DNA of 13,969 bases from Candidatus Heimdallarchaeota archaeon (GCA_021399395.1 JAAFKJ010000201.1:1-13969), one strand, 5' to 3'. Positions 147 to 13,969 are shown, numbered from the stretch's first letter. Program-made: numbers and translations. Notes: generated from the sequence alone by a model not told the origin.

Positions 147-1115
147 ATGCCTTTTCCTAGGACTAACATCAATCCTTTGGTAGCTGTCATAATCTATGAT
201 TTAAAGGGAAATAACATCTTTGAGCTTGAAAATGCTAAAAATGAGGTTGAAAAGACTGAGATTCACAGTTATTTCATCCATCCTATAGAATTTTATCAAT
301 GGGTTAGACGCTACAATGAGATAACTATTTTCAGAGGTAAATTCAGAGCAACCTATATTACTTTCATTGATTTAACACTTCTTTTTGTATCGAGAGTAGA
401 AAACATTGCAGCAGAAATTCGACCTATTATACTAAATTACATTACAGGATTAGGTCAGAACGTTGTAAGAAATCTAACTACTCATGAGAAGGAAGATCTG
501 CTCATTAAGACTTGTGGATATTCTTATGATCAAGATATAAATCAATTTCGTAATCAAATAGACAAAATCTATTCTAGATTAGGAATTGAGAGAATGGAAC
601 CAGAACCCCTTACACTTGATATTCCAAAAGAAGAAGAACCAGTCATTTCAAGAACTGAAACACAAGCAGAGGTATTTGAACAAAGTCGTCCATTTGAATC
701 TGTTCCGAAAATCCGAGTAAGTGAAATGACTCAGGAAATTCTAGATGAAGCTAATAAACGAGCTATTACTTCTTTATTATTTTCATCGATTAGAGGTTGT
801 GTTTCTCCATCTGCATCAGCGTATATTTACACCAAAAATGATGGGGCAATTGGAGAATTATATGCGGGGAATTTAGAGGAAAGGAAAATAGTCTATGTAC
901 TTGAGACCATCACTCAGTTTCCAAGAGTTATCTTCGAAATGATTAATTCAGACGATGAAATCAAAGCTTTGAATGCAGAAGTTGTTCAAATTATTGTGGA
1001 AGAAAGTTCAGATGGAAAGATTCTTGTTGGAATGACCACAAATGTAAATGATGTAATCAATGTAGGTTATAAATTCAAAATCATCAAACACATACTGAAT
1101 ACAATGGGTTTCTAG
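147..1115 (+). CDS. Hypothetical protein; possible N-terminal longin-like and C-terminal roadblock/profilin-like domains joined by a Pro/Glu-rich linker
   Basis: 322-aa ORF. N-terminus LVAVIIYDLKGNNIFE resembles a longin beta1-beta2 start. C-terminus (SASAYIYTKNDG, helix, IIVEESSDGKILVGMT, helix) follows a roadblock/profilin-like strand/helix order. Domain calls are pattern-based only. Confidence 0.6.
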   Translation: MPFPRTNINPLVAVIIYDLKGNNIFELENAKNEVEKTEIHSYFIHPIEFYQWVRRYNEITIFRGKFRATYITFIDLTLLFVSRVENIAAEIRPIILNYITGLGQNVVRNLTTHEKEDLLIKTCGYSYDQDINQFRNQIDKIYSRLGIERMEPEPLTLDIPKEEEPVISRTETQAEVFEQSRPFESVPKIRVSEMTQEILDEANKRAITSLLFSSIRGCVSPSASAYIYTKNDGAIGELYAGNLEERKIVYVLETITQFPRVIFEMINSDDEIKALNAEVVQIIVEESSDGKILVGMTTNVNDVINVGYKFKIIKHILNTMGF

Positions 1116-1178: not shown

Positions 1179-2225
1179 ATGGATGAAGGTAAACTAGATA
1201 TTGCTCTTCTTAAAGAGATTTTAAGTAAGAAGGGATACAGGAATGAAGGAATCATAAGTTCTGGTGAAGTAGGAACTGATGCAGCCTCATTAGACATCTC
1301 TTTAGCTCAAAAGAAAGCACAAGAGTTTTACGATAATTTTTCAGATACATATCTTATTGTGAAATCAGATCCAGTTACCTTCCCAACCTCAGAACCAGGC
1401 AAATATGCTGTAATTGTTAATGCAAATGATATTTCATGCACAGGAGCAATACCTTACGGTTTCTTAACCACAATCATTGCACCGCCAAACACAAGTTTTG
1501 AAGAATTAGAGCTAGTACAAAAGCAAATTCATCAACAATGTTTCGACTTGGGTATAAGTATATTGGGAGGGCACACAGAGATTTCAGATTCAGTCAAAAG
1601 GATAATTGTTTCTGGACATATGATTGGTTTTGTACCAAAAGAATACTACGTTTCAAATAAGCTATCTGTAGAAGACTCAATTATAATTGCAGGAGAGATA
1701 GGTGCAGAAGGAATAGGAATCATAATTTCTGAAGCTGCAAATCTTATTACCAATATCCTTGATGACAAGGAACTAGAGGAAGGAGGAAGGATTGGTGAAA
1801 GATTAAGCTTAACAGACATTGCCAACATTGTAAACAAAAAATTTCATCCAACTTTGATTCATGATGCGACAGAAGGAGGTTTATACGGTGCTTTAAGTGA
1901 ATTATTACTAAATAGAGACGTAGGAATTCAGCTTAATAGAGAACCAAAAATAAACCCAATCTTAAGTAAGCTCTCAAAATGGTTAGAATTCGACCCATTT
2001 CGAGTCATTTCATCTGGCTTAATGATTTTTGCAGTAAGTAAGAATATTACTCAAAGTGTTCTTGAGTTTCTAAAGGAATATCAAATCCCACGGTCCTTAA
2101 TTGGTACGGTTACATTAGAGAAGGGAATCTTAAGACTTGAAGATAAAATTCTTGAAAAACCAAAGGGTGATGAAATCATTGTAGCTCTGAAAAATCTAGA
2201 AGGGATAAAAAATGAAAGAAAGTAA
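1179..2225 (+). CDS. AIR synthase-related protein (PurM/HypE/ThiL/SelD superfamily, PurM-like1 type), function unknown
   Basis: Motifs GKL, GTDAA, KSDPVT, VNANDISCTGAIP, GGHTE, HDATEGG and ISSG are typical of this family. Confidence 0.88.
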   Translation: MDEGKLDIALLKEILSKKGYRNEGIISSGEVGTDAASLDISLAQKKAQEFYDNFSDTYLIVKSDPVTFPTSEPGKYAVIVNANDISCTGAIPYGFLTTIIAPPNTSFEELELVQKQIHQQCFDLGISILGGHTEISDSVKRIIVSGHMIGFVPKEYYVSNKLSVEDSIIIAGEIGAEGIGIIISEAANLITNILDDKELEEGGRIGERLSLTDIANIVNKKFHPTLIHDATEGGLYGALSELLLNRDVGIQLNREPKINPILSKLSKWLEFDPFRVISSGLMIFAVSKNITQSVLEFLKEYQIPRSLIGTVTLEKGILRLEDKILEKPKGDEIIVALKNLEGIKNERK

Positions 2226-2904
2226 CTTAGATGCTCAGAATTCTATTCGCGACCACGACACATGGGGAGCTGAAGCTTTTCTCTTTAAAGAACAATGGTT
2301 TGGATTTGATGTAATCAAGAAAGTAAGATCCCCCAAAAAATACAGGATTAAAGAAATTGATATTGAACTTAGAACTAGTAGAACGATAATTGAATCAAAA
2401 TTATTGATAGCAGCAAAGAAAGCAGGAATTAAGACCCCAAATATCTTTGAAATTGATCTAGAAGACACAACTATAATTATGGAAAATATCGCTGGGATTC
2501 TTGTAAAAGAATGGTTAAAAAACTGTAGTGATGCCACCAAACAGAATGAGCTCATAAAACTAATTGGTAACTATGTTGGTATTCTTCACACCAATGATAT
2601 TATTCATGGAGATTTAACTACTAGTAATATAATAAAACAAAATGACGATTTATATTTCATAGATTTCGGGCTGGGCAAGTTTTCTCAAGCAATTGAGGAT
2701 AAGGCGGTTGATATATTATTAATCAAAAAGTGTTTTACAAGCACCCACACACAATCAGATAAAGAGTTCTTTTTTGCTTTTCAAGAAGGTTATATGAAAA
2801 CTATGAATCAAGCTACAAGTATTTTTCGAAGAGCAGCCAAAGCAGAAGCAAGAGCTAGACATTTGAAAGAAGATCAAGTTATAGCCCATTATCTGGTCTC
2901 ATAA
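2212..2904 (+). CDS. bud32: KEOPS complex kinase/ATPase Bud32
   Basis: GAEA glycine loop, KVRSPKKYR, RTIIE, HGDLTTSN catalytic loop, IDFGL, EDKAVD. Start overlaps the upstream gene by 14 nt. Confidence 0.95.
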   Translation: MKESNLDAQNSIRDHDTWGAEAFLFKEQWFGFDVIKKVRSPKKYRIKEIDIELRTSRTIIESKLLIAAKKAGIKTPNIFEIDLEDTTIIMENIAGILVKEWLKNCSDATKQNELIKLIGNYVGILHTNDIIHGDLTTSNIIKQNDDLYFIDFGLGKFSQAIEDKAVDILLIKKCFTSTHTQSDKEFFFAFQEGYMKTMNQATSIFRRAAKAEARARHLKEDQVIAHYLVS

Positions 2905-4189
2905 TCGAAGGAAGTTGCAACAATTTCTGACTTGTTTCCCAAGCAGTTTGAGCGTATTTTTCTTGATTAGTCCAATTGCCTTCTATTTTCCCTTTAGAAC
3001 TCAACTTCCCTAACATCTTTCTTATCTTAGGATATACTGGCTTGAAAGGTGTATCTTCAAGTTTTGTTCCAGGTAAAGGCATGAAAACATGAGCCCTAAT
3101 TAATGTTTGTCGTTTAGTTAATTCTTCTATAACATGAATGGTTTCAAGTTCATCTTCCTCTGAAGCACTTGGAAGACCAATGATGATATCAACTACAGGA
3201 GTAAAACCGATATCTAATAGGATATTGATAGCATCTATTCCTTCTTCAACAGTATGCCCCCTGTGAATCTCTCTTAGTACATCGTTACTTCCCGATTGTA
3301 AGCCTATAGAAATTCTTGAATTTGAGATATATGGTTTAATATCTTTCATGAGTTCCTTAGAAACCGTCTCAGGACGAACTTCTCCAGGAAAAGTTCCAAA
3401 ATATAGATCCCTAATTCCATCTACCTTACGTATTGAAGAAAGAAGTTCTACAATAGCTTCTTGATTTACTACTCTTGGTTTTGAAGACATATATCCAAGA
3501 GAATTTGGAGTGATAAAGCGGATATCGTTCAATTTCTTTTCAGACATCCATTTTACGGTATCAACAATGACTTCGACCGATCTATGTCTAGTTCGATGCT
3601 CAAACAAAGTTGGTACCTGGCAGAAAGTACAACCAAAAGCACAGCCTCTTGAAAGCTCAAGAGGAGGATATAGTTTTCTGGTTTGTGACATAAACGGATA
3701 ATCATCCAAAACAATTGGGACGGGTTTTTCAGTTAGTTTATATGAATCTGCATTTTCTAGATAAGCTATACCTGGTGTTCTAAAGATGTCTTCATTCAAA
3801 ATCATTTGTTTGAGGAAAAACGGTAATGAATATTCAGCCTCGCCGATAAAAGCAAAATCAAAACCAGTTTTCAAAGTTGTTAGAGGACTACCTGAAGCAT
3901 GACTTCCACCTGCTATGAATGTGATCCGTCTTAATTCTGATGGGTGAAGTGATTTGTAGATATTTTTCAGCCTTTCGTAAATTTCAGGAAGTTTGGCTGT
4001 ACGAAATGAAAAACCTACAACTAAATGATCGTATTTATTCAGAAGAGATTTTAGAATAGATGCATCTAGTTTCTCTTCTAGGATTACATCAATTTCTTGA
4101 AGAACTTTGTCCAAGTCTAGTGTAGCTATAAGCGAGGTAAGACTGTAAAAGTTCTTTTTTGAATAATCAAACACCATTGCAAGATTCAT
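2879..4189 (-). CDS. B12-binding domain / radical SAM protein, MJ1487 (TIGR04013)-like family
   Basis: CxxxCxxC (CAFGCTFC, 3620-3643), IAGGSHAS and IGEAE B12-binding-domain motifs, RHRS, DIRFITPN, FGTFPGEVRPE, QSGS, RGHT, HVFMPLPGT. Start moved from 4225 to ATG 4189 because GGTGA precedes it and it removes the overlap with kae1. Confidence 0.88.
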   Translation of the reverse strand: MNLAMVFDYSKKNFYSLTSLIATLDLDKVLQEIDVILEEKLDASILKSLLNKYDHLVVGFSFRTAKLPEIYERLKNIYKSLHPSELRRITFIAGGSHASGSPLTTLKTGFDFAFIGEAEYSLPFFLKQMILNEDIFRTPGIAYLENADSYKLTEKPVPIVLDDYPFMSQTRKLYPPLELSRGCAFGCTFCQVPTLFEHRTRHRSVEVIVDTVKWMSEKKLNDIRFITPNSLGYMSSKPRVVNQEAIVELLSSIRKVDGIRDLYFGTFPGEVRPETVSKELMKDIKPYISNSRISIGLQSGSNDVLREIHRGHTVEEGIDAINILLDIGFTPVVDIIIGLPSASEEDELETIHVIEELTKRQTLIRAHVFMPLPGTKLEDTPFKPVYPKIRKMLGKLSSKGKIEGNWTNQEKYAQTAWETSQKLLQLPSIMRPDNGL

Positions 4190-4194
4190 CTTAA

Positions 4195-4199
4195 TCACC
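4195..4199 (-). promoter_or_regulatory. Shine-Dalgarno-like GGTGA for the radical SAM gene
   Basis: Minus strand reads TAG-TCT-GGTGA-TTAAG-ATG, between the kae1 stop and ATG 4189. Confidence 0.7.
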
Positions 4200-4202
4200 A
4201 GA

Positions 4203-5198
4203 CTATTTCCAAGAAACGGGTACATCTTCAGGTCTAAAGTGTTGATCTATTATCGTGTCCTCTATTTCCGCTTTGACACCAGAATTATGCATTAGAATTC
4301 CTAACCATGCAATCATTACACCATTATCAAGTGCAAGATTGGCATCAAGACCTTTGAATGTCGCATCATGTGAGATTGCCATTTCATTTAACATTTCTTT
4401 TAATCTTCTATTTGCTGCTACTCCTCCACAAACTAGGATTTCCTTTTTTCTTGTATGAGCTAAAGCACGTTCAGTGACTTCTACTAGCATAGAAAACACA
4501 GTTTCTTGAAGACTAAATGCCAAATCTGGTAAAGCATACTTATTGGATTGATATAGTTTTGTTGTATGGGTTAAAATACCAGAAAAGGACACATCCATTC
4601 CTTTTATAACGTAAGGGATGTCAATATATTTTGAACCTTTAAGAGCTTCATTTTCAATTACCTTACCCATTGGATCTTTCTTATCACTTAGTCCAGCATT
4701 TCTACCAAATACATCAAGACAGTTTCCCACAGGTATATCAAGTGTTTCGCCAAAAACCCTATATCTACCTTCAGAAAATGCTATAACTTGAGTATTACCT
4801 CCCGAGACATACAGAACAACGGGGTCTTTTAGTTGCCCTTCTAAACATCCTATTTCCACATGGGCTATTGGATGATTTACTGGCATCAAAGGTTTGTTCA
4901 AAGCTAAAGCTAGAGTTCTAGCTGTTATAACGCCAATTCTTAAGCATGGGCCCAATCCCGGTCCTTTGGTAAATGAAATAAGATCAATTTCATCGGGAGT
5001 TATTCCTGCCTCTTGAAATGCATCATCTATTGCTTTAGGCATGTTTGTTGAATGAAACTCGGAAGCTTCTCTAGGATGGATACCACTACCAAAAGGTGGT
5101 TTGTAGGTCATTCTGATATTTGATAGTATTTTACCATCGCTATCTATTATTCCTACTCCTAATTTGTCTGCAGAACTTTCAATTCCTAGAGAAATCAT
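4203..5198 (-). CDS. kae1: tRNA N6-adenosine threonylcarbamoyltransferase Kae1 (KEOPS)
   Basis: LGIESSAD, GIHPREA, GPGLGPCL, metal-binding NHPIAH, YVSGGNTQ, GETLDIPVGNCLD, KGMDVSFSG, GGVAAN, DNGVMIA, QHFRPE. Start moved from 5303 to ATG 5198 (MISLGIES), which removes the overlap with the divergent gene. Confidence 0.97.
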   Translation of the reverse strand: MISLGIESSADKLGVGIIDSDGKILSNIRMTYKPPFGSGIHPREASEFHSTNMPKAIDDAFQEAGITPDEIDLISFTKGPGLGPCLRIGVITARTLALALNKPLMPVNHPIAHVEIGCLEGQLKDPVVLYVSGGNTQVIAFSEGRYRVFGETLDIPVGNCLDVFGRNAGLSDKKDPMGKVIENEALKGSKYIDIPYVIKGMDVSFSGILTHTTKLYQSNKYALPDLAFSLQETVFSMLVEVTERALAHTRKKEILVCGGVAANRRLKEMLNEMAISHDATFKGLDANLALDNGVMIAWLGILMHNSGVKAEIEDTIIDQHFRPEDVPVSWK

Positions 5199-5225
5199 AG
5201 TCAACTTAAGTTTAGATATGAGGGG

Positions 5226-5244
5226 TTTATAAAATCTTTTTTCG
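5226..5244 (-). promoter_or_regulatory. Putative BRE/TATA promoter of kae1 (probably leaderless transcript)
   Basis: Minus strand CGAAAAAAGAT-TTTATAAA. The TATA element (5233-5226) ends about 28 nt upstream of ATG 5198. Confidence 0.55.
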
Positions 5245-5289
5245 AAACTAAGAATAATATTTAATATTGCAAGATAGTAATTTATACCA

Positions 5290-6216
5290 ATGTCTAATCT
5301 CATTCAACCCATTTATCCATGGAATAGATCTAAAGTTGCCATGAAAAAAAGAAACCAGGGATTAGGAAACATTATTTCGTTGAATTTTATTTTTCTATAT
5401 TACTTATTGTTTGTTTTTGTCATATCAGGGAGAGTTTATCCTGTTTTGAGACAGGCAGATGTAAACCTTCTTGGTCATGTGAGTACTCTTGTTCTCTCTC
5501 TGAGATTTCTTGTCTTTAATTGGTGGATAAGTATTATTCTATTTTTTATAATATTGGTAGTCACATTTGTTATTACTGCATTAATCACTAAAACTAGGCC
5601 AAGTCTTTTCAAAACTTATTTTGAATATCTTAGAATTGATACTAAGAGTCAATCAAAAAAAGAAGTTACTAAGACTATATTAGTAGATATTTTGGAAATA
5701 GCTGGATTATCAATTATAAGCTTTATAATTCTAGAATTGCTAACTTTCGCTATCTCGTCACTTATTATAACCATGATTCTCCCTATAACTTACAATATTA
5801 CAGAGGTTTCATTAAGTTACTTCTTTCTAACCATATTAATAGCTCATATAGTCTTTTTTCCATTACTAATCTATTTCTATAATAGAATGGTGATGAAGAA
5901 GATGGTTATCACTGAAGGTGTGGACTTCCAGAGATTCTTAACAGAAGATGGCGAAGTTGATATGGAAAAATGGAAAGAAGAATCTTGGGGCAAAAAGCCA
6001 TATACATTTGATTGGGAAGAAGAAGATGTATTTCCAATTACTTGTTTTTCTTGTGGTTCTATAATATCCAGTGATTTAACCATCTGTCCCATCTGTGAAG
6101 TTGACTTAATCAATGAAATTGAAATTATAGAAACTGAAACATTGGATGATCCTGAAATTGAAAATTCTGAAGAAGCCATTCAAGAAGATGAAGAAAGTGA
6201 TGAAAACAGTCAATAG
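5290..6216 (+). CDS. Membrane protein (about 4 TM helices) with C-terminal zinc ribbon and acidic tail
   Basis: Four long hydrophobic stretches, CFSCGS...CPICE (two CxxC pairs), Asp/Glu-rich C-terminus. TTTAATA at 5260-5266 is a possible TATA box. Confidence 0.8.
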   Translation: MSNLIQPIYPWNRSKVAMKKRNQGLGNIISLNFIFLYYLLFVFVISGRVYPVLRQADVNLLGHVSTLVLSLRFLVFNWWISIILFFIILVVTFVITALITKTRPSLFKTYFEYLRIDTKSQSKKEVTKTILVDILEIAGLSIISFIILELLTFAISSLIITMILPITYNITEVSLSYFFLTILIAHIVFFPLLIYFYNRMVMKKMVITEGVDFQRFLTEDGEVDMEKWKEESWGKKPYTFDWEEEDVFPITCFSCGSIISSDLTICPICEVDLINEIEIIETETLDDPEIENSEEAIQEDEESDENSQ

Positions 6217-6611: not shown

Positions 6612-7505
6612 CTATTGGGAGGAAATCATGGAAACGATTTTGTCGACCACCAGTTTTCTAACTTTACTAGTAGTGCTTTCTCCTTTAATTGTTTCAACAA
6701 GAGGTAAGTTTCTTATTTGTGTCTCATTTACCAAGTGTTCATGTATTTTTCTTATATTATCAAAATTAGCTAATAGTTCCTCTTTCTCCTTTGTATATTG
6801 TGAGCTCAAGTTTTCTCTATGAAATGCTGGATCAGGAACAGAAATTGTAATATACAAAACATTAGGTTTTGATAGAATCATCTCATCGAAAAATGCTGGT
6901 AAAAGATGTTCGCCTTCTATAACAATAGAGACATTTTCCTTTTCTGCCCTAGATAAAACAGCGTCTACCCCAAGATTAACATATTTGGAATGATAATCAA
7001 AACCTAGAATAACTTCATCAAACCTACTGCTGTATATAGGTTTTAAACTTTGAAAGGCACAATAAGATGTTGAATGTAATTCTGGAACTACTTCTTCAGA
7101 AAGAATTTTTCTCAAAATATCTCTAACAACATCAGTTCCTATCACATGCTGAATTCCAAGCTCTCCAGCTATTCTTCTTGAAAGTGTGCTTTTACCAGTG
7201 CCTATGGCTCCAGCTATAAGTATCCAAATGGGTTTTCGTAAGCCCCTCCATTCTTCAATCTTTAAGTACTGTTCAGCTAAAGTTTTGTTATAAGATGAAG
7301 CTAGATGAGAAGAAATGATATCATTTATTTTTTCTTCTGGTATTATTTCTTGATTCAGATTAATGATATCATCATATACGTCAATAAGAAACTCATAGCC
7401 TTCTGTTTGAGAAAAACCAAGCAAAGTTAATTTTTTTGCAAGAATACCTCTAGACAATAGATGTTTCGTTCTTCCTTGGATAAAAACATTAGATTCTTTT
7501 TCCAT
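6612..7505 (-). CDS. 2-phosphoglycerate kinase family P-loop protein (divergent paralogue A)
   Basis: Degenerate ATP-cone start LSRGILAKKL, Walker A GAIGTGKS, IGTDVVRDILR, PELHSTSY, IEGEHLLP, FDNIRKIH. Confidence 0.82.
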   Translation of the reverse strand: MEKESNVFIQGRTKHLLSRGILAKKLTLLGFSQTEGYEFLIDVYDDIINLNQEIIPEEKINDIISSHLASSYNKTLAEQYLKIEEWRGLRKPIWILIAGAIGTGKSTLSRRIAGELGIQHVIGTDVVRDILRKILSEEVVPELHSTSYCAFQSLKPIYSSRFDEVILGFDYHSKYVNLGVDAVLSRAEKENVSIVIEGEHLLPAFFDEMILSKPNVLYITISVPDPAFHRENLSSQYTKEKEELLANFDNIRKIHEHLVNETQIRNLPLVETIKGESTTSKVRKLVVDKIVSMISSQ

Positions 7506-7596: not shown

Positions 7597-8514
7597 ATGA
7601 GCAATAATAATTCTGAGAGATTTCTTCGTATAAAATCAAAGAGAGATAAGTATGAATATTTCTCCAAAGGTATTCTTGCTGAATCACTTTTTTCAATTGG
7701 AATGAATACAAACCAAGCTCAAACAATTGCAAATCAAGTAGAAGAAGAAGTTAGTACATTAAATGAAACACAAACAAAGAAAAAACTTGTTCGAATAATA
7801 ACATCAGCTATCGAGAAAGTTGATAAAAAACTTGCAGAAAGATATATTGTTTTCAAGGGTAAAAGAAAATATAAACCCAGCATTATACTTCTTGCAGGTG
7901 TCCCAGGTATAGGTAAAAGTTCCTTAGCAGTTAATCTTTCAGAACGACTAGAAATAACAAATATTATTGGAACAGATATGATTAGAGCGATACTCAGACA
8001 AACAATTTCGTCTAAACTTATTCCGGAGATTCATAGCAGTAGTTATGAAGCATACAAACATTTGAAACCAACTTTGAATCCCATTTTACGTCCGTCAATT
8101 GTTGGATATGAAGAACAGAGTAGACATATTATAGTTGGCGTTGAAGCTGCTATTCAATCAGCTCTTTACTCACGAGAGAATACTATAATTGAAGGTGTTC
8201 ATTTAGCACCTAACTTACTAAATCAGGAAATTCTGAATGATGTTCATGTTATTATGATACTGCTCTATTTAGAAGATGAAGAAGAACATATAAGAAGAAT
8301 AACTTCAAGAGGTTCAAAAATAGAACAAAGAGGTTCGGATAGATACATTGAAGCATTTCCAGAAATCAGAGATATTCAAACCTATTTAGTAGAGGAAGCT
8401 ACTAAAGCAAAAATACCAATTATTGAAACTTCAGAAAGCTCAAAAGCAATTGCCAAAATGATGGACACTATTTGGGACAGAATTTTAAAGATAGATGAAA
8501 AAGAAAAGGATTAG
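7597..8514 (+). CDS. 2-phosphoglycerate kinase family protein (paralogue B, conserved motifs intact)
   Basis: ATP-cone FSKGILAESL, Walker A GVPGIGKS, IGTDMIRAILR, PEIHSSSYEAY, IEGVHLAP, HIRR...R...DRY...FPEIRDIQTYL. Confidence 0.88.
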   Translation: MSNNNSERFLRIKSKRDKYEYFSKGILAESLFSIGMNTNQAQTIANQVEEEVSTLNETQTKKKLVRIITSAIEKVDKKLAERYIVFKGKRKYKPSIILLAGVPGIGKSSLAVNLSERLEITNIIGTDMIRAILRQTISSKLIPEIHSSSYEAYKHLKPTLNPILRPSIVGYEEQSRHIIVGVEAAIQSALYSRENTIIEGVHLAPNLLNQEILNDVHVIMILLYLEDEEEHIRRITSRGSKIEQRGSDRYIEAFPEIRDIQTYLVEEATKAKIPIIETSESSKAIAKMMDTIWDRILKIDEKEKD

Positions 8515-8518
8515 AGAG

Positions 8519-10213
8519 CTAATAAGTCTCTTTAACCTTACATTCTAGAGAGGGTATTAAAGGTAACTCAATCTCGAAACCAACAACTGGAATCCAGATT
8601 TGATTCTTTTCTAACACATTTGGAGCGATCTCACCTATTATTCCACACTCCTTTTGGTTGATGATTATTTTTCCACATCTTCCTTCTGTAAAGGAGGGAT
8701 GTTCCAGCTTTTCAATCTTATATGAAGTTCTCAGGAGTTTCAGTAGAAATTCTAACCATTTATGTGCATCCTCAAAACTTGCATCAGCATCAGCATGGAA
8801 GAATGCTGCATTTGTTTGAGTTATTACTGATTTCTTGGTTATTTTTACTACTTCTCCGACTTCGAAAATTGATTGTGGATACGTTTCATGTGTATTTTTT
8901 GAGAATACATTGATTAGTAGGGGAAAGATTTGATCCCTTAGAACACTATAGGTCTTACTAACTGGATTTTCAATTTTTACAAGTTTTCTATCTTCGAGAT
9001 TAACATTTTCCATTAGTATATCTGGATCTGTTAGAGTGAAGGTAAGAAGCTCAATTCCTCCTGTACCTAATAGAATGTCTCGCACTATATTCTCACTTTC
9101 AGTTTCAGGTAATATACTCCCAGCTGTAAGAACTTTCCATTTGGTCGCACCCATTTTATTAAGATCCATTGCAATTGCAATTTCTTCTGCAATGTCTACC
9201 CAATGAAGAATATCCTTTCTATAAGGAGGAATCGCAACTGTTAATATTGATTTACTCTGAGAAACTCCATTGAAACGTCTTTTCTCCACCAATTCAGTTG
9301 CATCCTTCATCGAAATATTTGTTCCAAGATATTTATTGAGAACATCTATATCAATAGCAATTTCTTCAATTTCTAAATTGGGGTTGATATCATTCTTATC
9401 TCGTATTTCCTTGGGATATTCTATTTCAACACTGTAGATTTTCGAACCGTGGTCTACCATTGTTTGACAGAGGATATTTAGAATTACATTCACAGTTTCA
9501 TAATTTGTTCCTGTAACTTCAATGAGACACTCTGTAGTTTCCTCTGTAATTCTCCCCACATCATTACTGTTGATAACAGGAGGTAAAGAGAGAGTTATTC
9601 CATCAGCTGACAGTAGAATAGGATAATGATCATATCCTTTTACAATATCACCAAATTCCTGTCCTTTTTCATGTTCTTCAAGTATTTGAGGTAATTTCAT
9701 TTTTTCTTCATGACCCAACGGAATGAACTCATGAGAAGCGTCAATCACTTTATACTCAATTGGACTCTTTATCATGGAGAGATTATACATTCCAATAGAA
9801 GATCTCTTTCTCTTTCTACCATAAGATTGATCAATTTTCTCTGCCAGTTGCATTAATTGCTTAATGTGATAATCTGTTAAACTGATGTTCTTAGCTATAG
9901 CACATGCGATATAGGGACGTGAAGAAGCCAATTTGGGATCAACTACAACTTTGAAATCACTTGGTTCAATTTCATAAATAGGGATTTTATTCTCTTTCCC
10001 AAGAATGCCATTAATTTCCCTGACCATACCTTCCGCACACCAAAGGTCAGGACGATTACTTGTTTTAATATCTATAACTAGCATATCTTCTTCTTCAACA
10101 TAATCATCAATTTCAGATTTGGCAAAAGCTAAAAGATTACCTAGTTCGTCTATGGAAACATCTTTTCCAAGCATTTCTTGCAGTTTTGTGTAACTAGTTT
10201 TTATACTTACCAT
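8519..10213 (-). CDS. pheT: Phenylalanine--tRNA ligase beta subunit (archaeal/eukaryotic type)
   Basis: NRPDLWCAEG, RPYIACA, YGRKRKRSSIG, SLPPVINS, IEVTGT, PPYRKDILHWVDIAEEIAIA, NPVS...LR, FEVGEV; directly downstream of pheS. Confidence 0.97.
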   Translation of the reverse strand: MVSIKTSYTKLQEMLGKDVSIDELGNLLAFAKSEIDDYVEEEDMLVIDIKTSNRPDLWCAEGMVREINGILGKENKIPIYEIEPSDFKVVVDPKLASSRPYIACAIAKNISLTDYHIKQLMQLAEKIDQSYGRKRKRSSIGMYNLSMIKSPIEYKVIDASHEFIPLGHEEKMKLPQILEEHEKGQEFGDIVKGYDHYPILLSADGITLSLPPVINSNDVGRITEETTECLIEVTGTNYETVNVILNILCQTMVDHGSKIYSVEIEYPKEIRDKNDINPNLEIEEIAIDIDVLNKYLGTNISMKDATELVEKRRFNGVSQSKSILTVAIPPYRKDILHWVDIAEEIAIAMDLNKMGATKWKVLTAGSILPETESENIVRDILLGTGGIELLTFTLTDPDILMENVNLEDRKLVKIENPVSKTYSVLRDQIFPLLINVFSKNTHETYPQSIFEVGEVVKITKKSVITQTNAAFFHADADASFEDAHKWLEFLLKLLRTSYKIEKLEHPSFTEGRCGKIIINQKECGIIGEIAPNVLEKNQIWIPVVGFEIELPLIPSLECKVKETY

Positions 10214-10221
10214 TTTTTATA

Positions 10222-10227
10222 CACCTC
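10222..10227 (-). promoter_or_regulatory. Shine-Dalgarno GAGGTG for pheT, overlapping the pheS stop codon
   Basis: Minus strand T-GAGGTG-TATAAAAA-ATG. Confidence 0.75.
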
Positions 10228-11716
10228 AAGACATCTCCGCTGTTCTTAGCCACTCTAATTTATGGCTGAATAGTTCTCTAATATCAGTAATACCATGTTT
10301 AATCATGAATAGTCTATCAATTCCTAAACCCCAAGCGATAACAGGGGTTTCTATTCCAAATGGTCGTGTCACTTCTGGACGGAAAATCCCCGCGCCACCA
10401 AATTCCACAGATCCCATTATAGGATCATTAACGCTCAGTTCTACTGAGGGTTCTGTAAAAGGATAATAATCAGGTTTGAAAACGAAATTCTCTGTTTCAG
10501 CAACATCAACTGCAAATGTTGTTAGTATCCCTAGTAAATCTCTGAAAGTTATGGAGGGATCAGTTACTATTCCTTCAACTTGGTTAAACTCTGCCAAATG
10601 AGTCGCATCAACAGCATCAGGACGATAGCATCGTGATATACTGAAATATTTAGAAGGAACTGGTAAATCAACTAAAGTTCTTGCACTAACAGATGTTCCA
10701 TGTGCTCGTAATACTAATCGAGCGCTTTTTTCTGGAGACCATTTGTATCTCCATCCTTTACTTCCAGTATCATATCCGTCTTCATGTACCTTCTGGACTA
10801 ATGAAACATAATCCTTTTTGGGTAACTTTCCTTGTTTTGGATTAGCCACCCTGTAAACATCCGACCACTCTCTAGCAGAATGATCTTGTGCTTGAAACAA
10901 TGCATCGAAATTCCAGAATTCGAGTTCAACTAATGGACCCCGCATCTCATGAAAACCTAGTCCTATTAGTTTTCTTTTCACCCAATCGAGAAAATGAGCA
11001 TATGGTTGTTTTCTTCCACCATAAAAAACGGGAGGTGAAACCCCTAGATTATACTCTTTTAATTTAACATCCTTCCAAGAACCATTTCTGATCATTTCGG
11101 GAGTTAGACGACTAATTTCTGATGTTTGTTTTATACGAGATTTAACCTCTTCATAGAAAGTTAGTATCTCAAGAATTGTATCTTTAACTTCTATTAATTC
11201 AATCAAGTTTCTTTCAAGTAAAATTGCTTCAAATTCTTTTGTATCAACTTCTTTGTTAGCCAAAAAATCTTCTAGAATACCTTGCAAATCAGCGTTTATA
11301 TCAGTGTCTTGTTCAGCCAGCGATATTGTTCCTTTCTCAATTTTGATCAAGTCTTTCTTCTTGAGAAGTCCTATCCCTGCATTCATTTCTTTCTTATCAC
11401 AACCCATTAATTCAGATAGATTTGCGAAAAGAACATCCTTGTTCTTCCTTAAGACTTCAACAATTCGTCTCTCTATAAGTTGTTTTTCAGCAGCTTCTCT
11501 ACCTTCTTTGGTTAGAGACATAAGATGACTAACGATTGGTAATCGAGAAACTAGATCATTAGATATTAGAAAATCTAGGAAATACTCTAGTTTACCTCTG
11601 TCTAACTTTGTTGCTTCTTCAATTTCTTTAATTGAAATTTTCTTCTTTTTATTAAGAATCTTATATATCTCAACAGCTTCTATTGGCAAAGATATATGCT
11701 TCTCTGGTTCACTCAT
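10226..11716 (-). CDS. pheS: Phenylalanine--tRNA ligase alpha subunit (long archaeal/eukaryotic type)
   Basis: FWNFDALFQAQDHSARE, LRAHGTSVSAR, motif 2 YRPDAVDATHLAEFNQVEG, YYPFTEPS, EFGGAGIFRPEV, motif 3 AWGLGIDRL; N-terminal winged-helix-like extension. Confidence 0.98.
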   Translation of the reverse strand: MSEPEKHISLPIEAVEIYKILNKKKKISIKEIEEATKLDRGKLEYFLDFLISNDLVSRLPIVSHLMSLTKEGREAAEKQLIERRIVEVLRKNKDVLFANLSELMGCDKKEMNAGIGLLKKKDLIKIEKGTISLAEQDTDINADLQGILEDFLANKEVDTKEFEAILLERNLIELIEVKDTILEILTFYEEVKSRIKQTSEISRLTPEMIRNGSWKDVKLKEYNLGVSPPVFYGGRKQPYAHFLDWVKRKLIGLGFHEMRGPLVELEFWNFDALFQAQDHSAREWSDVYRVANPKQGKLPKKDYVSLVQKVHEDGYDTGSKGWRYKWSPEKSARLVLRAHGTSVSARTLVDLPVPSKYFSISRCYRPDAVDATHLAEFNQVEGIVTDPSITFRDLLGILTTFAVDVAETENFVFKPDYYPFTEPSVELSVNDPIMGSVEFGGAGIFRPEVTRPFGIETPVIAWGLGIDRLFMIKHGITDIRELFSHKLEWLRTAEMS

Positions 11717-11842: not shown

Positions 11843-11897
11843 AAATAGAAAATAATGAAAGAATTATTTAAGATTTTCGAGGTTAAACCTAAAATCT
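11843..11897 (-). terminator. Putative terminator after the GcvH-like gene (hairpin followed by U-rich tract)
   Basis: Imperfect inverted repeat AGATTTT-cg-AGGT-taa-ACCT-AAAATCT (11871-11897), followed on the minus strand by TTCTTTCATTATTTTCTATTT. Confidence 0.4.
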
Positions 11898-12390
11898 AGT
11901 ACTCTGAGATGTTATCACTATATTCATAACCTGATTCTTCATCTAATCCTTCTGACTCTTCTGAATCATCATCATCAAAATCTTCATCCTCAATTTCCTC
12001 ATGGAAAACATCCAGAATTTCATTTGAATCCATTAGTTGATCTAAATCATCATCAGATCCAATTTCCATTTCAACAACCCATCCTTCTTTATATGGACTT
12101 TCATTTAATAACTCTGGAGATTGTCTTAGGATATCGTTTATCTCAGTGATTTTACCGCTAATTGGTGCTTTTATTACAAGACCATCTTCGATAGAATCGA
12201 TTGAAATTATTTCCTCATCCTTATCAACAAAGATTCCTGTTTCAGGTAGCGTAATTGAGATAATATCATCTAAAACATATTGGCCAAAATCTGTAATCCC
12301 AATACGATAGACTCCTCTATCTATATCTTCCACCCAAACAGAAGTAGAGTAGTATAAACAATTTTCTGGAAATTTAAATTGACGTTTCAT
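11896..12390 (-). CDS. Glycine cleavage H-protein-like protein lacking the lipoyl lysine, with acidic C-terminal tail
   Basis: FPENCLY...WV, RIGITDFGQYVLDDI...LP, APISGKITEIN, PELLNESPYKEGWVVEM are GcvH motifs. ESVK is replaced by DSIE. Confidence 0.88.
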   Translation of the reverse strand: MKRQFKFPENCLYYSTSVWVEDIDRGVYRIGITDFGQYVLDDIISITLPETGIFVDKDEEIISIDSIEDGLVIKAPISGKITEINDILRQSPELLNESPYKEGWVVEMEIGSDDDLDQLMDSNEILDVFHEEIEDEDFDDDDSEESEGLDEESGYEYSDNISEY

Positions 12391-12507: not shown

Positions 12508-13969
12508 CTATCTTAGTCTCATTCTCATGAGGAATTGTTCATCTGTTAAATTAAACAGGGTTGATAGTGTTTCTTCAATAGGTGTTTTGTTGAAGTATTC
12601 AAGCGCTACACTAATTGTTACTTCTTTGTAATCTTTGATGAATTTGTAAATTCTTTGACTTAATGGATTTAATTTCACTACTTCTTTCTCTTTCATAGGA
12701 TTAACTGAGAGTGGGTGTAGTGTCCATACAAATAATTCTTCACTCAATGTGTCCATTATTTGATGTGAATTCTTTGTGAACTCATCAGTAACTCCATTCC
12801 AGTCATGGAGAATTGGTTGGAACCTTTTCTCAAACCATTCAACAAATTTTGCTAAACCAGTTTCTACATCTACAGAAACATCAGTTGTACTGAATAGATA
12901 AGCACAGATACAGTCTTTGGATGCACTTGAAACAACAAACTGTCCATAATCTAATTTTTTTACAGAACCTGCTGCTCCACCGCTTATCTCACTGCCCATA
13001 CCTGCTACAGCTTGTAGAAAACCAGTTACCAAGGTAGAATCAACTGAAATCTCTCCTCCAAGATCCCATTCATAAACCGGTAATCCTGTTTCTGAATGTA
13101 CAATTATTACTTTTCTCATTGCAAGAACACTTGTAAGTATCTTAGAGATTTTATCTAGATATCTTCTCTTGGAAGCTTTCTTCTTTTGTTTCTTTGGTCT
13201 AATTACTGCAAAGTAGATTGTGAGAACTATGAATATAACAGCTAAAGCTGCTAATCCACCAACCATATAATATGTATATTCTTTAAACAGGAACGTCAAT
13301 AATGCAAGGAAAGCAGGTGATGCAGTTGTATCTTCACTTTCTTCTGTTGACTTAGAGAGTAAGACATCTTGGTTTGTTGCACTTGGAACATAGGAAGCAT
13401 AATAACTTAAACCTGTTACTTGCCAAGGAATTTCTATTGAGTCACTCTCACCCAAATATATTCCTAATCCGCCAGTAAGAGTTATACTAACATTGAATGT
13501 TTCCTCTGTTCCATCCTTGTAGTAGAATGTATAAAACACCATAACTGGGTCTCCATCAGGATCTGGAGCCATGTGAATTGGATAGTCACCTTGAAGTGAC
13601 AATAATTCTTGAGAAGCATTTTCTATGGTAACTATGAAATAGAAATCAGCCAGTTGTCTCAATTCACCACCAGTTTCCACCATCATATCATAATCTACTG
13701 GAGGATAGAAATTCAAACGAATGATAATAGTTTTAGTAACATACCCATATTCTTCAAAAGTTAATTCAATAATACATAAAGTGCCAACAGTTAAAGCTGT
13801 GTTTGGATCAAAACTTATCTGAATATAGAGGCCATATATACTAACATCTATAGAATCGAAGTAAGTATTTATGTTAAGAGAATTGTTAGCTGTTGCAAAA
13901 TCAGCTGTAACGTTACCTGTAAGAATACTAAGATTTCCAGATATTCCATCCATATATTGAAAAGATAAA
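12508..13969 (-). CDS. C-terminal part of a large single-pass membrane protein: beta-rich ectodomain, TM helix, cytoplasmic longin domain and winged helix (5' end outside window)
   Basis: Frame stays open past ATG 13953 to the window edge (LSFQY-M). Thr/Ser/Asn/Tyr-rich beta-type region, TM YYMVGGLAALAVIFIVLTIYFAVI then RPKKQKKK, longin-like VIIVHSETGLPVY...DSTLVTGFLQAV...FEKRF...WNG, and terminal helix-turn-helix-like segment. Confidence 0.85.
   Translation of the reverse strand, partial: LSFQYMDGISGNLSILTGNVTADFATANNSLNINTYFDSIDVSIYGLYIQISFDPNTALTVGTLCIIELTFEEYGYVTKTIIIRLNFYPPVDYDMMVETGGELRQLADFYFIVTIENASQELLSLQGDYPIHMAPDPDGDPVMVFYTFYYKDGTEETFNVSITLTGGLGIYLGESDSIEIPWQVTGLSYYASYVPSATNQDVLLSKSTEESEDTTASPAFLALLTFLFKEYTYYMVGGLAALAVIFIVLTIYFAVIRPKKQKKKASKRRYLDKISKILTSVLAMRKVIIVHSETGLPVYEWDLGGEISVDSTLVTGFLQAVAGMGSEISGGAAGSVKKLDYGQFVVSSASKDCICAYLFSTTDVSVDVETGLAKFVEWFEKRFQPILHDWNGVTDEFTKNSHQIMDTLSEELFVWTLHPLSVNPMKEKEVVKLNPLSQRIYKFIKDYKEVTISVALEYFNKTPIEETLSTLFNLTDEQFLMRMRLR

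Follow-up and report, generated by a model that had tools for sequence, protein, structure and literature searches.

We analysed a 13,969-nucleotide (nt) stretch of DNA from Candidatus Heimdallarchaeota archaeon (GCA_021399395.1 JAAFKJ010000201.1:1-13969), in its full length called the window here. Positions 1179-5198 hold kae1 and bud32, two genes for the N6-threonylcarbamoyladenosine (t6A) modification of transfer RNA (tRNA), each packed against the gene of an enzyme from another family: a B12-binding-domain radical S-adenosylmethionine (SAM) protein of the family TIGR04013 beside kae1, and a PurM-like protein beside bud32. The TIGR04013 protein is a credible candidate for a cobalamin-dependent C-methylase of the pathway leading to t6A and its derivative N6-hydroxynorvalylcarbamoyladenosine (hn6A), a reading that we favour tentatively, with confidence just short of even. 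Support for it was drawn from the kae1 operon, a co-localisation with tsaD in Thermotogota, tRNA-modification genes among the neighbours of the family elsewhere, its distribution and its predicted chemistry. That the protein is specifically the hn6A determinant, C-methylating the threonyl gamma-methyl of t6A37 after KEOPS or TsaD has acted and yielding the reported 'methyl-hn6A' in a second turnover, is possible but on the doubtful side.

Open reading frames (ORFs) were called in the window and the encoded proteins were scanned with Pfam and NCBIfam profiles, the scores being compared with the curated cut-offs. The ORFs called at 1179-2225 (+), 2212-2904 (+), 2879-4225 (-) and 4203-5303 (-) have the identities that an earlier note had read from the DNA. 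The kae1 gene (4203-5198 (-)), encoding the t6A37 threonylcarbamoyl transferase, scored 445.4 bits on arch_KAE1 (TIGR03722; cut-off 375), and bud32 (2212-2904 (+)), encoding the KEOPS kinase/ATPase, 201.9 bits on arch_bud32 (TIGR03724; cut-off 125). The product of the gene at 2879-4189 (-) reached 402.8 bits on TIGR04013 (B12_SAM_MJ_1487; cut-off 251) in the window and 402.9 bits in the genome search, and the gene at 1179-2225 (+) encodes, according to Pfam, NCBIfam and fold comparisons, a PurM-superfamily (AIRS/AIRS_C) ATP-utilising enzyme without subfamily assignment. The Kae1 profile match begins at residue 39 of its long ORF and the TIGR04013 match at residue 18, fitting starts at 5198 and 4189, respectively. 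An alignment of 19 Kae1 sequences showed H109, H113 and D291 to be invariant, the metal-binding His/His/Asp motif that we take as a criterion for the family. Likewise, H132-G133-D134, N139 and D151-F152-G153 are invariant among 15 aligned Bud32 sequences, corresponding to the catalytic-loop and DFG motifs that presumably mark this kinase family.

In the genome of the window, which is 82% complete, kae1 is the single TsaD/Kae1-family match and bud32 the single match above the cut-off. As the earlier note had stated, pcc1, cgi121 and sua5 lie outside the window; a Sua5 homologue is found on another contig of this genome, as is an e-MtaB methylthiotransferase (361 bits). Because they are single copies, with Sua5 and e-MtaB on other contigs, kae1 and bud32 are the housekeeping t6A genes and not paralogues of them. 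The same two genes make up the canonical archaeal kae1-bud32 operon or fusion, and both match NF007174 (the 'bifunctional' protein). Unlike the canonical pair, those in the window are convergent, with the radical-SAM gene inserted downstream of kae1 and the PurM-like gene coupled upstream of bud32.

The junctions are as they had been read from the sequence. The bud32 ATG at 2212 lies within the PurM-like gene, whose stop codon (TAA) occupies 2223-2225, giving a 14-nt overlap; the bud32 stop codon ends at 2904 and that of the radical-SAM gene begins at 2879, giving a convergent 26-nt 3' overlap. On the other strand, the kae1 stop codon (TAG, 4205-4203) is separated from the radical-SAM ATG at 4189 by a 13-nt gap with the Shine-Dalgarno-like motif GGTGAT (4194-4199 (-)). 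We read this as a t6A core, kae1 and bud32, packed into two putative convergent operons, kae1>TIGR04013 and (orf322>)PurM-like>bud32, where orf322 is a hypothetical gene upstream. Tight packing is not peculiar to the genome of the window. Throughout the family that holds Ca. Heimdallarchaeum aukensis (family f1), the distance from kae1 to the radical-SAM gene is -4 to +13 nt (30/30 loci, the window counted, with radical-SAM identities down to 50%) and that from the PurM-like gene to bud32 is -29 to +13 nt (also 30/30), while the 3' ends of the radical-SAM gene and bud32 overlap by 11-29 nt in 27 of these loci and lie 5-8 nt apart in three.

Profile and model comparisons make the TIGR04013 protein a candidate for a cobalamin-dependent radical-SAM C-methyltransferase. 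It scored 87.1 bits on Pfam Radical_SAM, and Cys183, Cys187 and Cys190 of its CxxxCxxC motif are invariant in an alignment of 13 sequences. In the AlphaFold2 model (predicted local distance difference test, pLDDT, 87) residues 1-150 form a domain of alternating strands and helices, and a fold search superposed the whole model on MgmA, CysS, OxsB, TsrM and TokK. MgmA was the best match in the PDB (9ccb; template modelling score, TM, 0.71/0.74) as well as the best sequence-profile match (E 2.5e-33); fold ranks two to four were taken by MtaB/MiaB, followed by CysS, OxsB, TsrM and TokK. Members of TIGR04013 are mostly basic, with a median isoelectric point (pI) of 8.5-9.4 in most lineages.

MgmA, also called QCMT (PDB 9CCB), is the B12-dependent radical-SAM glutamine C-methyltransferase of methyl-coenzyme M reductase in M. 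marburgensis (PMC11796369). Its architecture, a Rossmann-like domain at the N terminus and then a radical-SAM core with CxxxCxxC, is also predicted for the protein in the window, and its chemistry, the methylation of an unactivated sp3 carbon, is what a conversion of t6A to hn6A requires. The TIGR04013 family, unlike MgmA, extends to Asgard archaea, Thermoproteota and numerous bacteria. MgmA introduced into M. acetivorans as a host produced the glutamine methylation (PMC11796369), although M. acetivorans has a TIGR04013 gene, so the substrate of TIGR04013 differs from that of MgmA. An assignment of the protein in the window to MgmA/QCMT itself (TIGR04014) was ruled out by a score of 112.4 bits against a cut-off of 360 and by the spread of the family beyond methanogens.

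MtaB/e-MtaB and MiaB resemble TIGR04013 as radical-SAM enzymes and modify A37 (t6A37/hn6A37 or N6-isopentenyladenosine, i6A37). They differ in their N-terminal auxiliary-cluster cysteines, none of which is invariant in the TIGR04013 alignment. A MiaB/RimO/MtaB-type methylthiotransferase (TIGR00089) was likewise ruled out, with 81.8 bits against 251 and no invariant cysteine before residue 183. Class-B radical-SAM enzymes methylate unactivated methyl carbons, and those of the TokK, ThnK and CysS type do so iteratively. These three methylate a methyl carbon to form ethyl or larger substituents, which sets a precedent for the step from CH3 to CH2CH3 as well as for 'methyl-hn6A'; unlike the protein in the window they are much larger, act on small-molecule or carrier-bound substrates and show 15-16% identity to it. 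The literature searched (subscription journals lay outside its coverage) contained no report on TIGR04013 by that name and none on an hn6A methylase, including in radical-SAM and cobalamin/B12 contexts, in line with the earlier note, which knew of no substrate assigned to either flanking family.

The nucleoside hn6A, rarer than the universal t6A, is t6A with one additional methylene on the side-chain methyl, and hn6A and its 2-methylthio derivative ms2hn6A were reportedly described in 1992. TIGR04013 exceeded its cut-off in three of 14 named control genomes, those of T. maritima, M. jannaschii and M. acetivorans. In the sections available of three papers (PMC6313347, PMC10702137, PMC7430679; cited below to the same extent), hn6A is reported in these three organisms. 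TIGR04013 is single-copy in M. acetivorans, where t6A, hn6A and ms2hn6A are described as detectable (PMC10702137). T. maritima and T. commune are described as the exceptional bacteria possessing hn6A (PMC6313347), which is matched by the spread of TIGR04013 in Thermotogota and Thermodesulfobacteriota. The gene is single-copy and common in groups with known hn6A (58/61 Methanosarcinaceae, 42/61 Thermotogota) and patchy in Thermodesulfobacteriota (19/151), where the best scores occur in the smallest genomes. Relatives were found in Desulfurococcales, Pyrodictiaceae, Ignisphaera, Thermodesulfatator and Caldimicrobium, and methyl-hn6A has been reported in Stetteria (Desulfurococcales) and M. kandleri (PMC6313347). 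The available sections call the biosynthesis of hn6A (PMC6313347) and the origin of hydroxynorvaline (PMC7430679) unknown, and the latter reports that TsaBCDE of E. coli makes hn6A when supplied with hydroxynorvaline. Since the t6A enzymes of E. coli can make hn6A once they are given hydroxynorvaline, a separate determinant gene for hn6A must exist.

Outside the family of the window, one further lineage places TIGR04013 near a gene for t6A synthesis. Six of 20 Thermotogota loci, forming one synteny group, read holA>TIGR04013>clpX>tsaD, co-directional and with short or overlapping junctions, and the TsaD (locus L244) scored 433 bits on TIGR03723. This co-localisation is independent of the linkage in family f1, which makes two lineages in total. 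If any one gene is taken to sit within two genes of another in about 0.2% of arrangements, then across about 60 independent synteny groups the two co-localisations with tsaD/kae1 would be expected by chance less than once per hundred, an approximate and post hoc estimate. Other tight, co-directional neighbours have roles in RNA modification or translation. A gene for a Taw1/TYW1-type wyosine radical-SAM enzyme, followed by a translin-family gene, lies directly downstream of TIGR04013 in a Thorarchaeota group of 13 loci, of which one representative was scanned; an Anaerolineae locus has a TtuA-like PP-loop protein (tRNA thiolase type) encoded 1 nt upstream, and an archaeal locus the methionyl-tRNA synthetase MetRS 11 nt upstream. 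In family f6 the order is SpoU methylase>DUF1028>TIGR04013 (two loci scanned). Among 54 co-directional immediate neighbours SpoU occurred twice and eRF1 and YchF once each.

Further gene orders around TIGR04013 were recorded, and clustering the flanks of the 69 loci outside f1 revealed no neighbour common across lineages. The conserved, co-directional Thorarchaeota-type run (L083:5378-8938 and 12 syntenic loci) begins with the proteasome beta subunit, followed by TIGR04013, the Taw1/TYW1-like gene and the translin-family gene, and a NOG1-type GTPase is encoded upstream on the opposite strand (one representative per cluster scanned). Downstream of a class-III aminotransferase gene, TIGR04013 is found at gaps of -4 and 17 nt in two Thermodesulfobacteriota loci (L048, L068), and downstream of HypD at gaps of 3 and 0 nt in two loci of Pyrodictiaceae/Desulfurococcales (L061, L088). 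In Methanosarcinaceae (L255-L274) the run comprises a UbiD-family decarboxylase, an AcnX-like large subunit, a DUF126 small subunit and, at its end, TIGR04013; 11 of these 20 loci also contain an M50 peptidase.

If TIGR04013 acts in the hn6A pathway, the 5'-deoxyadenosyl radical would most likely abstract hydrogen from the side-chain gamma-methyl of the threonyl group in tRNA-bound t6A37, and methyl transfer from methylcobalamin would convert the threonyl into a hydroxynorvalyl group, that is, t6A into hn6A. A second round of methylation would give the reported 'methyl-hn6A', and ms2hn6A could then arise through the e-MtaB for which the genome has a gene on another contig. With methylation after the transfer, the cell would need no pool of free hydroxynorvaline, which is an analogue of threonine. 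Threonine or threonylcarbamoyl-AMP (TC-AMP) may be the substrate instead, which is less likely. The PurM-like protein would be an ATP-dependent enzyme whose coupling to bud32 is family-specific. On the more doubtful reading, with TIGR04013 as the specific hn6A determinant, this co-packed ATPase may carry out another, ATP-dependent reaction at the threonyl side chain.

The reach of the linkage was determined in two surveys. The first took in 30 TIGR04013 loci of 41 related genomes, with neighbours within 1.5 kb. In 21 of them, with a radical-SAM protein at least 61% identical to that in the window, kae1, the radical-SAM gene, bud32 and the PurM-like gene were present in the same order; the remaining nine (33-38% identical, eight of them from a sister family) showed no kae1, bud32 or PurM-like gene within this distance. 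The second, with one genome per GTDB species, comprised 80 TIGR04013 loci. The block kae1>radical SAM><bud32<PurM-like was found in 11 (53-77% identical, including the complete Ca. Heimdallarchaeum aukensis genome), which also carry the flanking genes orf308 and/or orf322 wherever the contig is long enough. No kae1, bud32 or PurM-like gene lay within 6 kb in the remaining 69 loci, whose radical-SAM proteins are at most 42% identical and which belong to Thermoproteota, Bathyarchaeia, archaea of Thor-, Loki- and other Heimdall types, and many bacteria. The cluster is present in all five sampled genera of family f1, and the four-gene arrangement is a single event that took place once in the ancestor of this family. 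In a FastTree tree of the TIGR04013 copies, which is effectively unrooted and has long branches, those of f1 make up a single clade (stem 0.69), and the other Heimdallarchaeia copies are not its sister group. Elsewhere in the same class, 5 of 15 loci (families f5 and f7) have kae1>bud32 side by side and unaccompanied, the two genes lie 3-4 kb apart in two loci (f2 and f4), with unrelated genes (ABC transporter, cofilin, pterin enzyme, MFS) between them, and they are more than 5 kb apart in eight (f3, f4 and f6).

Three single loci deserve mention. In one genome of the genus of the window, a 3-kb contig that lacks the cluster carries a further TIGR04013 copy (L001, G004:C104); this copy is near-identical to a copy from family f6 (L171, G278; branch lengths 0.03 and 0.02) and is probably bin contamination rather than a paralogue. 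A contig titled 'Candidatus Thorarchaeota archaeon' (L038, JBHLQZ010000143.1) carries the Heimdallarchaeaceae-type cluster and groups inside that clade; its title looks like a taxonomic label or binning error. In family f4 a gene with a cofilin/ADF domain (97.9 bits), a eukaryote-signature protein, adjoins kae1 (L197:6026-6469 (+)).

Several of the results weigh against a role of TIGR04013 in t6A or hn6A synthesis. In the loci surveyed, the linkage to kae1 is confined to family f1: a kae1/tsaD, bud32 or sua5 gene was near none of the 69 other loci within 6 kb, none of 20 further Heimdallarchaeia loci within 1.5 kb, and none of 20 Methanosarcinaceae and 18 Thermodesulfobacteriota loci. Sua5/TsaC was not found beside TIGR04013 in any of four rescanned sets of 80, 16, 40 and 18 loci. 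The unrelated genes between kae1 and bud32 in f2 and f4 imply that insertions at this place need not be functional. In Thermotogota clpX separates the radical-SAM gene from tsaD, in an operon of mixed housekeeping genes. Most neighbourhoods of TIGR04013 are unrelated to tRNA (UbiD/AcnX, HypD, class-III aminotransferase, LspA, proteasome beta), and the Methanosarcinaceae run looks like modified mevalonate-pathway genes, which does not fit a tRNA role. As regards cobalamin, the Pfam B12-binding match reached 24.0 bits, below the cut-off of 32.1, and neither CobS nor CobQ was found in the 82%-complete genome. The distribution is confounded, since the three control organisms with the gene are all strict anaerobes and of the other 11 only B. 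thetaiotaomicron is one; to our knowledge, hn6A is absent from these 11. TIGR04013 relatives also occur in Myxococcota, Planctomycetota and Actinomycetota, for which we know of no report of hn6A, and we know of no tRNA modification data for any Asgard archaeon. Finally, the conclusion in the available part of PMC7430679 is that the t6A enzymes use hydroxynorvaline directly to form hn6A. Such direct incorporation can be reconciled with the favoured reading only where threonine or TC-AMP is the substrate of TIGR04013, or where the two routes operate side by side.

The main alternative, which we regard as a serious prospect though short of even, is an incidental gene order: an ancestral kae1>bud32 pair was split in this order of Heimdallarchaeia, a housekeeping radical-SAM gene and a PurM-like gene landed by chance beside the halves in one family, and the whole was compacted into operons, neither enzyme being related to t6A. 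TIGR04013 may then methylate a protein, a cofactor or a lipid. Such a history accounts for a linkage that arose once, in f1 alone, and for the states of kae1 and bud32 in related families, adjacent and unaccompanied in f5 and f7, split by unrelated genes in f2 and f4 and far apart in f3 and f6. Simple descent also predicts that the six-gene block, with two unrelated hypothetical genes, is syntenic as a whole. The mostly unrelated neighbourhoods of TIGR04013 elsewhere agree with it. MgmA, the closest characterised relative, acts on a protein, and re-annotation work on MJ1487 (MjCyc) guessed a BzaE-like role in cobamide lower-ligand synthesis from 29% identity. Against an incidental order stand the second, independent co-localisation with tsaD in Thermotogota, the recurrence of tRNA-modification neighbours in four further lineages, the agreement of the control genomes with reported hn6A, and a kae1/radical-SAM spacing that is maintained down to 50% identity; and the MgmA result in M. 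acetivorans means that TIGR04013 does not do the job of MgmA there. A target on a protein of the t6A machinery or of translation (e.g. Kae1, Bud32 or a ribosomal residue) instead of tRNA is very improbable in our estimation. Such a target would suit the operonic position of the gene with kae1 and the activity of MgmA/QCMT, whose substrate is a residue in a protein and which also acts on many peptides, but the family is common in bacteria, which lack KEOPS, we know of no such protein modification, and the basic pI fits binding of nucleic acid slightly better, a weak indication.

The earlier note had proposed that the four genes may be a single module for making t6A and then modifying it further. 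In such a module KEOPS would synthesise t6A and the two flanking enzymes would act on the product, the PurM-like protein, for example, activating and cyclising or dehydrating the threonylcarbamoyl group with ATP. We consider this improbable. The PurM-like gene overlaps or nearly abuts bud32 in all 30 loci of the family, and its relatives include HypE, whose partner HypF has a Kae1-like domain: in the HypF-HypE complex (PDB 3VTI) a Kae1-like transferase domain works with a PurM-superfamily ATP-dependent dehydratase in carbamoyl transfer and dehydration. TcdA, which acts in the formation of cyclic t6A (ct6A), offers a second analogy. HypE (TIGR02124) was indeed the best NCBIfam match of the PurM-like protein, with 92.3 bits against a cut-off of 251.6. 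This score is far below the cut-off, and the protein therefore belongs to the PurM superfamily without an assigned subfamily. It scored 49.3 bits on AIRS (cut-off 24) and 53.5 bits on AIRS_C (cut-off 23.1) in Pfam, and 53.9 bits on ThiL (184), 31.4 on PurM (236) and 29.7 on SelD (125); by fold, HypE, ThiL and PurM are equally near to its model (pLDDT 93.7; TM 0.66-0.79). Its C-terminal end (...EGIKNERK) contains no cysteine, unlike HypE, for which we take a carbamoyl-carrying C-terminal cysteine as the criterion. A genuine PurM, ThiL or HypE was ruled out for this gene because all three are encoded elsewhere in the genome (PurM 354.9 bits, ThiL 219.9 bits and, on another contig, HypE 312.1 bits), as is a genuine HypF. 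Beside purM this genome also has a 732-residue frame with two AIRS domains.

Beyond family f1 the PurM-like gene has no link to t6A genes. Full-length orthologues of 36-42% identity occur in families f2, f5, f6, f7 and f22 of the phylum and were not found in f3 (0/11 genomes) or f4 (0/3). None of 24 orthologue loci outside f1 lies near bud32, kae1 or the radical-SAM gene, and none of 34 more distant loci (30 from Thermoproteota and four others) is linked to KEOPS genes. The neighbours depend on the family (GHMP kinase, CarS and PCNA in one, PurC and hemerythrin-PAS in another), and clustering the flanks of 20 PurM-like loci revealed none shared across lineages. Nor do the two flanking families occur together consistently: 10 of the 12 f3 genomes have the radical-SAM gene but 0 of 11 the PurM-like gene, and f2 has the PurM-like gene without the radical-SAM gene. 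In family f7 one orthologue carries an N-terminal NUDIX domain, giving a protein of 525 residues (L141:5258-6832 (-)); the domain was scanned in L141, and the open frame in L142 is similarly long. This fusion hints at a nucleotide-linked substrate and would suit the four-gene proposal. A predicted complex of Kae1, Bud32 and the PurM-like protein gave ipSAE values of 0.00 and 0.01, which count neither way.

Since the linkage arose once, in one family, and nothing else connects the PurM-like gene with t6A, the results do not support a four-gene module. The tie of the PurM-like protein to KEOPS is the family-specific operon, and we do not assign it to t6A chemistry. What stands of the earlier proposal is the part concerning the radical-SAM protein, backed by tsaD in Thermotogota, the tRNA-related neighbours and the distribution of hn6A, one of the t6A derivatives listed there; for the PurM-like protein a modifying role is not supported, with none of 58 loci linked outside f1. 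The synteny survey called for at the time came close to the outcome that had been named as speaking against the module, a linkage restricted to the genome or genus, as it showed a family-wide linkage in one family.

The window has a G+C content of 33%, and its gene order is orf322, PurM-like, bud32, TIGR04013 radical SAM, kae1, orf308, two 2-phosphoglycerate-kinase-like genes, pheT and pheS. The flank upstream of the PurM-like gene, orf322 (147-1115 (+)), encodes an Asgard-only hypothetical protein and is conserved by synteny in those loci of the family whose contigs reach far enough (43-88% identity); profile scans gave no Pfam or NCBIfam match, and its nearest Atlas clusters are unnamed Asgard proteins. 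On the other side orf308 (5290-6216 (+)), a divergent conserved flank with a sub-threshold match to the zinc ribbon DZR_2 in the Pfam scan, is syntenic throughout the family (27-82% identity). Two divergent paralogous P-loop genes follow at 6612-7505 (-) and 7597-8514 (+), with 227.6 and 256.3 bits on NF003259 (2-phosphoglycerate kinase; cut-off 343), and then an archaeal pheT and pheS operon at 8519-11716 (-) (450.9 and 535.9 bits), a glycine-cleavage H-protein-like gene at 11896-12390 (-) (GCV_H, 98.8 bits) and a 481-residue ORF at 12508-13953 (-) without a Pfam match. The datasets that carry the DNA of positions 1179-5198 are cold-seep and sediment metagenomes.

If the gene order is incidental, the locus is a lineage-specific rearrangement of housekeeping genes. 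If TIGR04013 makes hn6A, a role would be found for an orphan family of many archaea and bacteria, and the accepted picture of a direct incorporation of hydroxynorvaline would need revision. RNA would be added to the substrate classes of cobalamin radical-SAM chemistry, for which a 2026 review of the B12-dependent radical-SAM enzymes does not use the word tRNA, and TIGR04013 would be the first such enzyme known to act on tRNA.

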